64,000 nucleotides of DNA. Origin: Escherichia coli. GTDB lineage: Bacteria > Pseudomonadota > Gammaproteobacteria > Enterobacterales > Enterobacteriaceae. A program made the position numbers and the translations under genes. Each line of letters starts with the position of its first letter. Position 1 is the stretch's first letter. The stretch is taken from NCBI RefSeq assembly GCF_050320075.1, contig NZ_CP190018.1; one strand, given 5' to 3'. The notes under the pieces were generated by a model. That model searched no databases. It was not told the origin of the DNA and saw only the letters and a list, made by a program, of their open reading frames with translations. Positions 10,784-63,218 of the stretch are shown here, piece by piece.

Positions 10784-10956
10784 AAAGTTCTTTGACGTTG
10801 CATTGCTGGCGTAAATGTCAGCAATGCAGCATTTCCTCACGATTCTCCTTTGACGATCGCACTTTTTGCTCGTTATGATGGCGTCGCTAGCCTCAGTAAA
10901 TCCTTACTCCGGCGGTGCGCAACCCGTGCGCGTGAACCACTATCTGAATGCTCATC

Positions 10957-30144: not shown

Positions 30145-31222
30145 TCACGGCAGGCGGTGGCGGGCTTGATAATAAGCCTGCCAGTGAGCTTCTTTATGTG
30201 TGGCGACACGCTGTTCGAAGTAACGGCGCAGACGCGCGCGATCTTCTTCGTTATCTTTAACGATGGTTCCGGCAATACAGTCCACCAGATCGGCTGGCTC
30301 ACCTGCGCGATTCGCTAAAAACCAGGCGCGGACGCCCACTGCGTGGGCCACGTTCACGGCTTCAGCGGTGGATATAATTGCCGTCAGAGTATCCATTGAC
30401 GTTTTCTTTTCGCCGTTGGCACGCAGATCGCGGAAGGTGCGGACCAGTAACTCCAGTACCGCGTCAGGCACTTTATGCGGAATACCGCTATGGGCCAGCA
30501 AACGCGCCGAAGCACTGGCGACCAGTTCCAGCTCCTGGGCGAAATCCATAATCGGAAAGACGGTTTCAAAATCGAAGCGACGCTTTAGCGCGGCACTCAT
30601 CTCATTGACGCCGCGATCGCGGGTATTGGCAGTGGCAATAATATTAAAGCCTTCCCGCGCATAGAGCTGACTGGCTTCACCGGTGAGTTCCGGCACCGTC
30701 ATCACCCTGTCAGAAAGCATACCTAACAGACAGTCTTGTACTTCCAGCGGTGTACGCGTTATCTCTTCAAAACGGACGATTTTGCCGTCGCGCATTCCCT
30801 GGTAAAGCGGGGCAGGGACCAGTGCTTCCGTAGACGGACCATGGTTGATAAGCAGGGCGTAGTTCCATTTGATCTTCAGTAGTAGATGCGCCGCCCTGGA
30901 TGGTTAACCCGGCATCGCCGCTAATAGCGGTTGCCAGTAATTCAGACAGGAGAGATTTTGCGGTGCCCGGTTCCCCCACCAACATCAAACCGCGCCCGGT
31001 GGCAAGAGTGACTAACATACGTTCGACAGCGGAGGGACTAATCACCACTTTACGGCTAATATTTTGCGCGCTATCGCCAAGGATAAAAGCACGGGCCGCA
31101 GGCAAACTTAACTGCCAACCGGGCGGGCAAGGTGCGTTATCATTTTGTTTTAATTTTGCCAGTTCATCGGCGTATAACACAGCAGCAGGCGGACGCTGCA
31201 GATGATTATTCTGCGGTGACAT
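30145..31222 (-). pseudogene. yehL: yehL, MoxR-type AAA+ ATPase, split by a frameshift into two overlapping frames
   Basis: N-terminal frame ([12 protein letters not shown]...Walker [11 protein letters not shown]...GGASTTEDQ) ends at 30767; C-terminal part (…[41 protein letters not shown]…ATANTRD…) is in another frame bounded upstream by a stop at 30904-30906; total span 1078 nt is not a multiple of 3. Confidence 0.75.
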
Positions 31223-31338
31223 ATATTCATCCCTGAAATGTATTAATGAAATAAACGATATTTTACGCGCAATAAATGTTTGGCGCATTAGTTGTTTGAG
31301 CGAAAAATATCTGGAAAGCAGATCACAGTAAATAAAAA

Positions 31339-31365
31339 AACCTGCTGGTGAGGCAGGTTCTTTTA
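31339..31365 (-). terminator. Hairpin flanked by A7 (left) and T4 (right); reads as strong intrinsic terminator for minus-strand transcripts
   Basis: AAAAAAACCTGCTGGTGAGGCAGGTTCTTTT; rc gives stem followed by U7. Confidence 0.5.
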
Positions 31366-31445
31366 TTTACTATTTTCAGGCCCAACACCGCAGCCTGTGC
31401 AACATCGTGTTCCAACGAACGAATTATAACCATCGGTGGACCCCG

Positions 31446-31473
31446 TTGCAATTAAGATAATGAGATTTATAAT
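31446..31473 (+). promoter_or_regulatory. Candidate sigma70 promoter TTGCAA-N16-TATAAT upstream of small ORF
   Basis: -35 TTGCAA at 31446-31451, -10 TATAAT at 31468-31473, 16-bp spacer. Confidence 0.4.
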
Positions 31474-31654
31474 CCAGACGGTTGGGACGTTGCGCCGGAT
31501 CGGACCAATTTTAAGTCCTGGCTACCGGACGGGTGGTGCTGCAGGTGGTGCCCTGATCCGGAGTGCAACATCGTGGTCCAACATACGTAAACCAGTATCG
31601 ACAGGCAGTGTAAGGGTAAGGTGCTGGTGTTGCGCTCCTTAATAAGGAGAGCGG

Positions 31655-31744
31655 ATGGACACGCTGACACAAAAGTTAACCGTGCTCATTGCCGTACTGG
31701 AGCTATTAGTGGCTCTGTTACGGTTGATTGATTTGTTGAAGTAA
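31655..31744 (+). CDS. Candidate 29-aa small hydrophobic/amphipathic protein (unnamed; not in ORF track)
   Basis: AAGGAGA Shine-Dalgarno 7 nt upstream of ATG 31655; translation MDTLTQKLTVLIAVLELLVALLRLIDLLK; followed by hairpin terminator. Confidence 0.35.
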   Translation: MDTLTQKLTVLIAVLELLVALLRLIDLLK

Positions 31745-31765
31745 TGGGCAAATTGAAACGCATCT

Positions 31766-31790
31766 AAGGGGGAATACCGTTTCCCCCTTT
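31766..31790 (+). terminator. Hairpin AAGGGGGAATACCGTTTCCCCCTTT after the small ORF and immediately beyond yehK stop
   Basis: 7-bp G/C stem, then TTT AATAAA. Confidence 0.4.
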
Positions 31791-31797
31791 AATAAAG

Positions 31798-32118
31798 CTA
31801 TTTTTCTATTTCTTGGTTGAATATATTCTGTAGTTCGGGATTAAAAATGGCTATTACCGTTTCTGGTGATTCGCCCCGTAATTTTCGCTCATCAATAAAC
31901 TCATCTCTTATATAAATCAACGCATCATTTATTAGCGGGTCGACATCCTCTCGATCACGTTGATGAAATGTTGGATGTAGCCGGAATCGCTCCAGTCGGT
32001 AGACGGAACCTGTAAATAATTCAGAGCATTTATGGATCTCAAGTCTGAAGGAAAACGGATCTTCAGGTACAGGGACCTCATAATCGTAAATAGCAACCAG
32101 CTCTTTTTGCACGATCAT
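31798..32118 (-). CDS. yehK: Uncharacterised small protein YehK
   Basis: 106-aa ORF MIVQKELVAIYDYEVPVPEDPFSFRLEIHKCSELFTGSVYRLERF...; ATG verified. Confidence 0.85.
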   Translation of the reverse strand: MIVQKELVAIYDYEVPVPEDPFSFRLEIHKCSELFTGSVYRLERFRLHPTFHQRDREDVDPLINDALIYIRDEFIDERKLRGESPETVIAIFNPELQNIFNQEIEK

Positions 32119-54469: not shown

Positions 54470-54600
54470 ATCAAACGACTCGGGGTGCCCTTCTGCGTGA
54501 AGGCTGAGAAATACCCGTATCACCTGATCTGGATAATGCCAGCGTAGGGAAGTCACGGACCACCAGGTCATTGCTTCTTCACGTTATGGCAGGAGCAAAC
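54470..54600 (+). promoter_or_regulatory. TPP (thiamine pyrophosphate) riboswitch, thiM leader
   Basis: Conserved THI-box elements GGGGTGCCC...CTGAGA...ACCTGATCTGGATAATGCCAGCGTAGGGAA immediately upstream of thiM RBS. Confidence 0.8.
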
Positions 54601-62505: not shown

Positions 62506-63218
62506 GCACAGAAAACCCCCAGCTAGGCTGGGGGTTCCGGAAAGCTTTCAGCTTTGAGCCAGTTATTCAAACCCCTTTTGATTTGTTAAAACACCTTGCG
62601 GTCTGGCAACTGCAAGTGTCAAACAAGAAATCAAAAGGGGGTCCCAATGGGGGACGAAAAGAGCTTAGCGCACACCCGCTGGAACTGTAAATATCACATA
62701 GTTTTTGCGCCGAAATACCGAAGACTGGCGTTTTACGGAGAGAAGCGTAGGGCGATAGGCAGTATTTTGAGAAAGCTGTGTGAGTGGAAAAGCGTACGGA
62801 TTCTGGAAGCAGAGTGCCGCGCAGATCATATCCATATGCTTGTGGAAATCCCACCCAAAATGAGCGTATCCGGCTTTATGGGATATCTGAAAGGGAAAAG
62901 CAGTCTGATGCTTTACGAGCAGTTTGGGGATTTGAAATTCAAATACAGAAACAGGGAGTTCTGGTGCCGAGGGTACTATGTCGATACGGTGGGTAAGAAC
63001 ACGGCGAAGATACAGGACTACATAAAGCACCAGCTTGAAGAGGATAAAATGGGGGAGCAGTTATCGATTCCATATCCGGGCAGCCCGTTTACGGGCCGTA
63101 AGTAACGAAGTTGAATGCAAATGTCAGATCGTATGCGCCTGTTAGGGCGCGGCTGGTAACAGAGCCTTACAGGCGCATTTGAAAAACCTCCGGCTATGCC
63201 GGAGGATATTTATTGCCT
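62506..63218 (+). mobile_element. IS200-like (IS200/IS605 family) insertion element; ends approximate
   Basis: Single Y1 transposase gene flanked by subterminal hairpins CCCCCAGC-TAG-GCTGGGGG (62516-62534) and CCTCCGGC-TAT-GCCGGAGG (63187-63205); second stem-loop 62571-62642 sequesters tnpA RBS. Confidence 0.7.
62647..63105 (+). CDS. tnpA: IS200 transposase TnpA (HUH Y1 transposase)
   Basis: 152-aa MGDEKSLAHTRWNCKYHIVFAPKYRRLAFYGEKRRAIGSILRKLCEWKSVRILEAECRADHIHMLVEIPP... with HuH motif HIHML and catalytic Tyr region. Confidence 0.9.
   Translation: MGDEKSLAHTRWNCKYHIVFAPKYRRLAFYGEKRRAIGSILRKLCEWKSVRILEAECRADHIHMLVEIPPKMSVSGFMGYLKGKSSLMLYEQFGDLKFKYRNREFWCRGYYVDTVGKNTAKIQDYIKHQLEEDKMGEQLSIPYPGSPFTGRK

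Follow-up and report, generated by a model that had tools for sequence, protein, structure and literature searches.

The spacer between yehL and yehK in the stretch of Escherichia coli DNA analysed here (64,000 nucleotides, hereafter the window) carries a zor/orz type I toxin-antitoxin module, intact and in single copy, a reading that leaves scarcely any room for doubt. It is virtually certain as well that this module is a member of the family known from E. coli O157:H7 as zorO-orzO and zorP-orzP, and nothing in the window sequence contradicts this. Much detail on the zor/orz system is already available. Its discovery, as z3289 and z3290 with sRNA-1 and sRNA-2, was made in the yehI-yehL interval of strain EDL933 (Fozo et al. 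2010, PMC2887945), and it has been dissected since in at least five later papers, which cover the membrane action of the toxin, the pairing rules of the sRNA, leader processing with a proposed standby site, and the distribution of the family including orphan antitoxins. A preliminary description of this region had compared its layout to that of small-membrane-protein or type I toxin-antitoxin loci, which is borne out by the identity of the peptide with ZorO and by the Rfam match to OrzO-P, though the gene for the antitoxin had gone unrecognised there. The chromosomal site, flanked by yehL and yehK (yehI), is the same in the window, in O157, in K-12 and in five other E. coli records, although the gene in the yehK position is labelled only as a hypothetical protein in some of these. 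The spacer is 575 bp long, as had been described, if yehL is taken to begin at 31222.

The zor gene, its leader and the divergent promoters

The zor toxin gene is located at 31655..31744 on the plus strand, stop codon included, where an entry in the ORF list has 29 codons and encodes the 29 amino acid peptide MDTLTQKLTVLIAVLELLVALLRLIDLLK. This peptide is 100% identical to the published ZorO of E. coli O157:H7 (synthesised by Otsuka et al., PMC6669753), and its names in protein collections include Small toxic protein ZorO and ZORO_ECO57 (UniProt). The search of protein catalogues that had been proposed for it therefore gives a named toxin. It is hydrophobic, with a GRAVY of 1.4 and a best 19 amino acid window of 2.52. 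A Shine-Dalgarno sequence, AAGGAGA, is found at 31644-31650, 4 nt upstream of the ATG at 31655; both this sequence and the 29-codon ORF had been noted before, and both are in the sequence. Scans of the 29 amino acid peptide against NCBIfam and PADLOC found no match, which is due to missing models for so short a protein and is not evidence against function. Longer mechanical ORFs cross the leader (68 aa on the plus strand; 67 and 53 aa on the minus strand) and were set aside, as they overlap the characterised non-coding leader.

Across 12 copies of the zor CDS there are seven synonymous variable sites and two conservative non-synonymous ones (T3S and Q6R), a pattern of substitutions which indicates that the zor ORF is under purifying selection. 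Both T3S and Q6R fall within the N-terminal eight residues, the deletion of which was among the constructs tested in PMC6669753. The preliminary description had hinged on conservation of the ORF and its ribosome-binding site in related genomes. The ORF is conserved in the 12 copies, and the Shine-Dalgarno sequence is invariant, partly by construction since the copies were gathered by a Shine-Dalgarno to ATG pattern.

The GC hairpin described earlier after the ORF is present 3' of zor at 31766..31789 on the plus strand (AAGGGGGAA-TACCGT-TTCCCCCTT), where the fold has nine pairs, five of them G-C. This is a probable terminator of the zor transcript. The terminator scan made no call for 31766-31789, where the T-run is short and weak. 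The hairpin is kept in the O157 copies save for a few base differences. It ends 9 nt ahead of the stop codon (31798-31800) of the convergent yehK. The window is without about 55 nt that are present in O157 between the zorO 3' hairpin and yehK (window 31790-31800 against L003:3100-3175), and the YehK of the window has one extra C-terminal residue (...EIEK rather than ...EIE).

The +1 of zor is placed 8 nt after the -10, at 31481, and on the distance from promoter to ATG the 5' UTR is 31481..31654 on the plus strand, which is 174 nt. The published zor 5' UTR has the same length (PMC5397157), and the start near 31480 and leader of about 175 nt that had been proposed earlier agree with it. The related copies examined have leaders of 174 nt too, apart from one of 175 nt. 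If +1 is set at 31481, AAGGAG at 31644-31649 coincides with the published ribosome-binding site at +164 to +169. The first 28 nt of the leader (31481-31508, plus strand), mapped from the literature, are the counterpart of the stretch that processing takes off to give the published delta28 form. The EAP region, a putative ribosome standby site, is at +73 to +102 (31553..31582, plus strand; mapped from PMC5397157 and PMC11264685) and contains the conserved GGAGTG at 31560-31565. An inverted repeat, GCGCUCCUUA / UAAGGAGAGC (31632..31652, plus strand), is predicted to fold into a hairpin that would sequester the Shine-Dalgarno sequence.

Folding of the leader had been suggested in the preliminary description. 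In the minimum free energy fold of the full-length mRNA, +1 to +27 are paired with +66 to +102 and the Shine-Dalgarno sequence is in a hairpin, with a mean predicted probability of being unpaired of 0.19. Removal of 28 nt raises the corresponding mean for the EAP from 0.30 to 0.41, a small opening in silico, and the fold energy of the leader is modestly below that of shuffled sequences (z = -1.6). The predicted fold of the window sequence reproduces the published structure, both in the pairing of the 5' end with the EAP and in the Shine-Dalgarno hairpin. Probing of the EDL933 allele has found the ribosome-binding site occluded in a stem (PMC5397157). Wen et al. (2017) found that the 5' end sequesters the EAP and that, once the first 28 nt are taken off, the EAP is released and translation is boosted (PMC5397157). 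In silico support for the fold is moderate, and more reliance may be placed on the published probing than on the prediction.

The promoter scan identified a zor promoter at 31446..31473 on the plus strand with 10/12 consensus bases, made up of a -35 TTGCAA (31446-31451), a 16-nt spacer and a -10 TATAAT (31468-31473). This is the near-consensus σ70 promoter TTGCAA-N16-TATAAT of the preliminary description, which is confirmed, whereas the minus strand has a promoter of its own, TTGCAA-N17-TATAAT, that had been overlooked. The latter is the orz promoter (31423..31451, minus strand), also with 10/12 consensus bases, having its -35 TTGCAA at 31451-31446, a 17-nt spacer and a -10 TATAAT at 31428-31423. 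One palindromic -35 hexamer, TTGCAA, is therefore common to both divergent promoters. The 2 promoter-like sites are not above chance, shuffled sequence having 1.5 +/- 1.2, so the plus-strand promoter carries no weight alone. Conservation of the promoter hexamers has been reported for 99% or more of the loci (PMC11264685).

The antitoxin sRNA and its predicted pairing with the zor leader

The gene for the antitoxin sRNA, orz, is of the OrzP type and is located at 31334..31416 on the minus strand. A covariance-model scan matched Rfam RF02083 (OrzO-P) to 31334-31409 on this strand, over the full model (1-76), with 101.3 bits against a gathering score of 60 (E 4e-17). The predicted start at 31416 is 7 nt downstream of the minus-strand -10, giving an RNA of about 83-87 nt. 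This agrees with northern bands of about 85 nt for the sRNA (PMC2887945), and OrzP-type RNA is expressed in EDL933 and MG1655 (PMC2887945, PMC11264685).

On the minus strand, the terminator stem of orz at 31359-31339 is followed by U7 at 31340-31334. The preliminary description had reported a minus-strand hairpin and U7 terminator at 31339-31365 that would end any antisense transcript crossing the region. The hairpin at 31339-31359 and the seven U are present, but the role given to them was wrong. The terminator ends a short divergent sRNA that does not overlap the zor transcript and that is predicted to pair with it through a repeat. The same terminator hairpin is bidirectional, and three weaker Rfam matches driven by it were rejected: OrzO-P on the plus strand (25 bits), the Thr leader (26 bits) and the Trp leader (22 bits), the two leaders scoring under the gathering threshold.

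The repeat is a 20-nt direct repeat, GTGCAACATCGTG(T/G)TCCAAC, at 31397-31416 and 31563-31582, with 2 matches in the 64-kb window and 0 in 100 dinucleotide-preserving shuffles. It had been described earlier with coordinates one base off and with both copies assigned to the leader. The repeat is real and the downstream copy is indeed in the leader, but the upstream copy is upstream of the zor promoter, inside the minus-strand gene. This upstream copy is the predicted 5' pairing segment of Orz, sRNA +1 to +20 (GUUGGAACACGAUGUUGCAC; 31397..31416, minus strand). The downstream copy is the predicted Orz target site, leader +83 to +102 (31563..31582, plus strand), which is the EAP region's 3' end and is 73-92 nt upstream of the ATG. 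In 2010 the target was reported to lie 72-92 nt ahead of the start codon (PMC2887945). Because the sRNA comes off the opposite strand, a direct repeat on the plus strand makes the sRNA complementary to the mRNA.

In the predicted duplex between the first 20 nt of Orz and the leader, 19 of the 20 positions are paired (6 + 13), with an A-G mismatch at sRNA +7 and a dG of -34.0 kcal/mol. Published work has shown that the first 18 nt of OrzO suffice for repression, and the rule given for OrzO is no fewer than 15 contiguous pairs, or no fewer than 17 where there is one mismatch (the mismatch form also in PMC11264685). With 19 paired positions and one internal mismatch, the window pair therefore passes the published threshold.

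Four 5' variants of the sRNA and three main variants of the target were found among the fetched loci, and these change together. Predicted duplex energies are -31 to -34 kcal/mol for cognate pairs as against -16 to -27 kcal/mol for non-cognate pairs. The exception is that two sRNAs of neither the O nor the P type pair well with one common target variant. At the level of sequence, this co-variation is evidence for an interaction between Orz and the leader. The published inability of OrzP to repress zorO fits with it. Further sRNA 5' variants, GUUGAGAUGCCAUG... and GUUGGGGCGCCAUG..., both of which pair with the GUGCAACAUGGCGACUCAAC-type target, are located at L004:931 and 1539, L005:1539 and L008:2149 (core coordinates). 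These probably correspond to the published zorQ/orzQ class, though the peptides there are ZorO-type rather than A20S.

The zor mRNA (31481-31487) and the Orz sRNA (31416-31410, minus strand) share a starting GUUGG. In the predicted fold, the GUUGG at the 5' end of the mRNA pairs with CCAAC (+98 to +102; 31578-31582), which is also targeted by the 5' GUUGG of the sRNA. On this model the mRNA 5' end and the antitoxin look like competing ligands of one site.

The steps by which the module may work rest on experiments with the O157:H7 (EDL933) alleles. Two σ70-type promoters would fire in opposite directions from the one palindromic -35 hexamer. The rightward transcript would be the zor mRNA, with its 174-nt leader and 29-codon ORF for the hydrophobic inner-membrane toxin ZorO, and the leftward transcript the Orz sRNA of about 85 nt, ending at a strong intrinsic terminator. 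In the full-length leader, approximately the first 28 nt would pair with the EAP and the Shine-Dalgarno sequence would be held in its own hairpin, leading to poor translation. Processing of the 5' end to the delta28 form would free the EAP, proposed as a ribosome standby site, and translation would be promoted. Orz would bind the 3' part of the EAP, resulting in a translation block and RNase III-dependent decay, both of which have been described for OrzO, the block being at the EAP as proposed standby site (PMC5397157).

ZorO, if made, would insert into the inner membrane, with depolarisation, damage and a growth stop as the outcome. Overproduced ZorO has been localised to the inner membrane, where it causes depolarisation and damage, and it triggers hydroxyl radicals (PMC6669753). 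That overproduction of the toxin stops growth and that the sRNA rescues it has been published for the identical peptide and an O-type sRNA (PMC6669753, PMC2887945). The growth arrest and rescue function of the window allele, and its expression, should be as for the EDL933 alleles, given the identical peptide and the intact signals. Repression by the window pair is extrapolated, most of the mechanistic experiments having used the O-type pair.

Named modules and distribution

The window allele is a mosaic, combining in a single unit a ZorO-type peptide (T3) with an OrzP-type pairing sequence. E. coli O157 has two tandem units. The yehL-side unit encodes MDSLTQ... (ZorP) and has the pairing sequence seen in the window, whereas the yehK-side unit encodes MDTLTQ... 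(ZorO) and has a pairing sequence unlike that of the window. In zorO-orzO of EDL933 (z3289/sRNA-1; Fozo 2010, Wen 2014, Wen 2017), the 29 amino acid peptide is identical to that of the window. The likeness extends to the promoter hexamers, the 174-nt leader, the Shine-Dalgarno hairpin, the divergent sRNA of about 85 nt, the target position and the chromosomal site. The pairing sequence differs, however, being GUUGGAACACGAUGUUGCAC in the window and GUUGGUACGAAAUGUUGCAC in OrzO, and the predicted cross-duplexes between the two are weak, at -18.9 to -24.4 kcal/mol where cognate pairs reach -31 to -34. The EDL933 zorO-orzO also adjoins yehK as the second unit of a tandem, whereas the window has one unit.

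The zorP-orzP of EDL933 (z3290/sRNA-2) and OrzPmg of K-12 MG1655 have the same sRNA type as the window, with an identical 20-nt pairing segment. The zorP-orzP target is the same as that of the window, and zorP-orzP and OrzPmg adjoin yehL as the window unit does. Of the 87 nt of the sRNA, 2 are not the same in the window as in OrzP/OrzPmg. The third residue is Ser in ZorP and Thr in the window peptide, as it is in ZorO. Unlike the window, K-12 MG1655 has only orz (L002:1535-1610; RF02083, 99.9 bits), both promoters and a leader that stops after approximately 30-45 nt, and its yehL-yehK spacer lacks the zor target site and the ORF.

The peptides, sRNAs and chromosomal sites of tisB and dinQ, which are under LexA/SOS control, are unrelated to those of zor/orz. 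These two systems nevertheless resemble it in having a divergent, non-overlapping sRNA that pairs a long way upstream from the ribosome-binding site in a long leader (PMC5397157). They also share a full-length mRNA that is inert until processing at its 5' end activates it, as well as a proposed standby site and a small toxin of the inner membrane (PMC5397157).

Among 5426 complete E. coli genomes, the orz half is present in 5232 (96%) and the zor toxin half in 3397 (about 63%). About 34% of the genomes (about 1835 of the 5426) are orz-only, in line with the share of approximately 30% given in mSystems in 2024 (PMC11264685). The K-12 orz remnant was considered as an unreported orphan antitoxin and rejected, since it has already been published and detected as OrzPmg (PMC11264685). 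Outside E. coli, a degenerate scan with the back-translated KLTVLIAVLE pattern, run on a single genome for each species, detected the module in two other Escherichia species and, in two copies, in E. whittamii. A lone match outside Escherichia, in Plectonema, is a chance occurrence that lacks a start codon, Shine-Dalgarno sequence and promoter and runs into a stop. The scan missed E. fergusonii, a carrier according to Fozo 2010, so its pattern is too stringent for the taxonomic range to be read from it.

Neighbouring genes, alternative readings and annotation

The neighbouring yehL gene, on the minus strand with its start at 31222, is frameshifted by the loss of 11 bp that K-12 has at gene positions 356-366 (window 30867-30868). 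In RefSeq, yehL of strain M217 is annotated as 'frameshifted' and yehM as having an 'internal stop'. M217 (NZ_AP019189.1) matches the window throughout the 501-nt locus, and between 28300 and 34800 a single base out of 6501 is different. The yehLM part of what the preliminary description called a candidate system looks inactivated in this strain. The unit had been described as sitting between the two operons of that system, but no sign of membership was found. K-12-type strains keep the yeh genes without the toxin, and here zor/orz is intact beside a frameshifted yehL, with an internal stop in yehM of M217; on both counts, no tie of zor/orz to the yeh genes is seen.

Between the yehL start and the orz terminator there is a 16-nt inverted repeat (31257-31272 / 31296-31311) that is 88% complementary, with 23 nt between its arms. 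It may serve yehL as an operator or as part of its promoter, or it may form a hairpin in RNA. Elsewhere in the window, three plus-strand RNA features are above the Rfam gathering score: the Hfq-binding sRNA STnc490 (62514-62637, 143.9 bits), a Peptidase-S11 RNA motif (10872-10952, 72.8 bits) and a TPP riboswitch (54471-54567, 71.8 bits).

The decay of the adjacent yehL is real, and the toxin half has been lost from about one third of E. coli genomes, as seen in the difference between orz and zor counts. The locus might on these grounds be a decaying, non-functional remnant, comparable to the K-12 site, which has orz but no toxin, or to the yehL and yehM pseudogenes beside it. This is very improbable, as all of the functional elements are intact and canonical, from the two promoters, 174-nt leader, Shine-Dalgarno sequence and ORF to the 19/20 pairing and two terminator hairpins. 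More improbable still is a harmless small membrane protein gene run solely by its own structured leader, with the upstream repeat incidental and the minus-strand hairpin serving, for example, to terminate yehL-side or read-through transcription; the hairpin at 31339-31359 does read as a terminator on the plus strand too, and the leader by itself is able to repress translation in the published system, but the minus-strand segment covers the OrzO-P covariance model over its full length with 101 bits and has its own promoter with 10/12 consensus bases, the 20-nt repeat is absent from all shuffles, the sRNA and target co-vary among loci, and the identical peptide is toxic in experiments.

For a locus read as an intact zor/orz module, it is conceivable, if rather unlikely, that Orz acts beyond the silencing of zor, either on further targets in trans or as a regulator in its own right. 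This is suggested by the third or so of genomes from which the toxin, target site and ORF have been lost but in which orz and intact promoters remain. Such a role was already hinted at by the authors of the 2024 study after the detection of OrzPmg in K-12 (PMC11264685). In a weaker variant of this suggestion, a functional link with yehIK and yehLMPQ would account for the constant location of the locus between them.

In the RefSeq E. coli records inspected, neither zor nor orz is annotated, the features under the match being either empty or only yehK. Together with the lack of an NCBIfam or PADLOC model, this RefSeq/PGAP gap is an annotation gap for a characterised toxin, and it may explain why the locus looked unfamiliar and new. 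As a result of this gap, a reader of sequence only, or an annotation-based pipeline, will keep rediscovering zor/orz. Masking of zor/orz in scans of Escherichia genomes, by means of Rfam RF02083 and the ZorO peptide, is therefore advisable.
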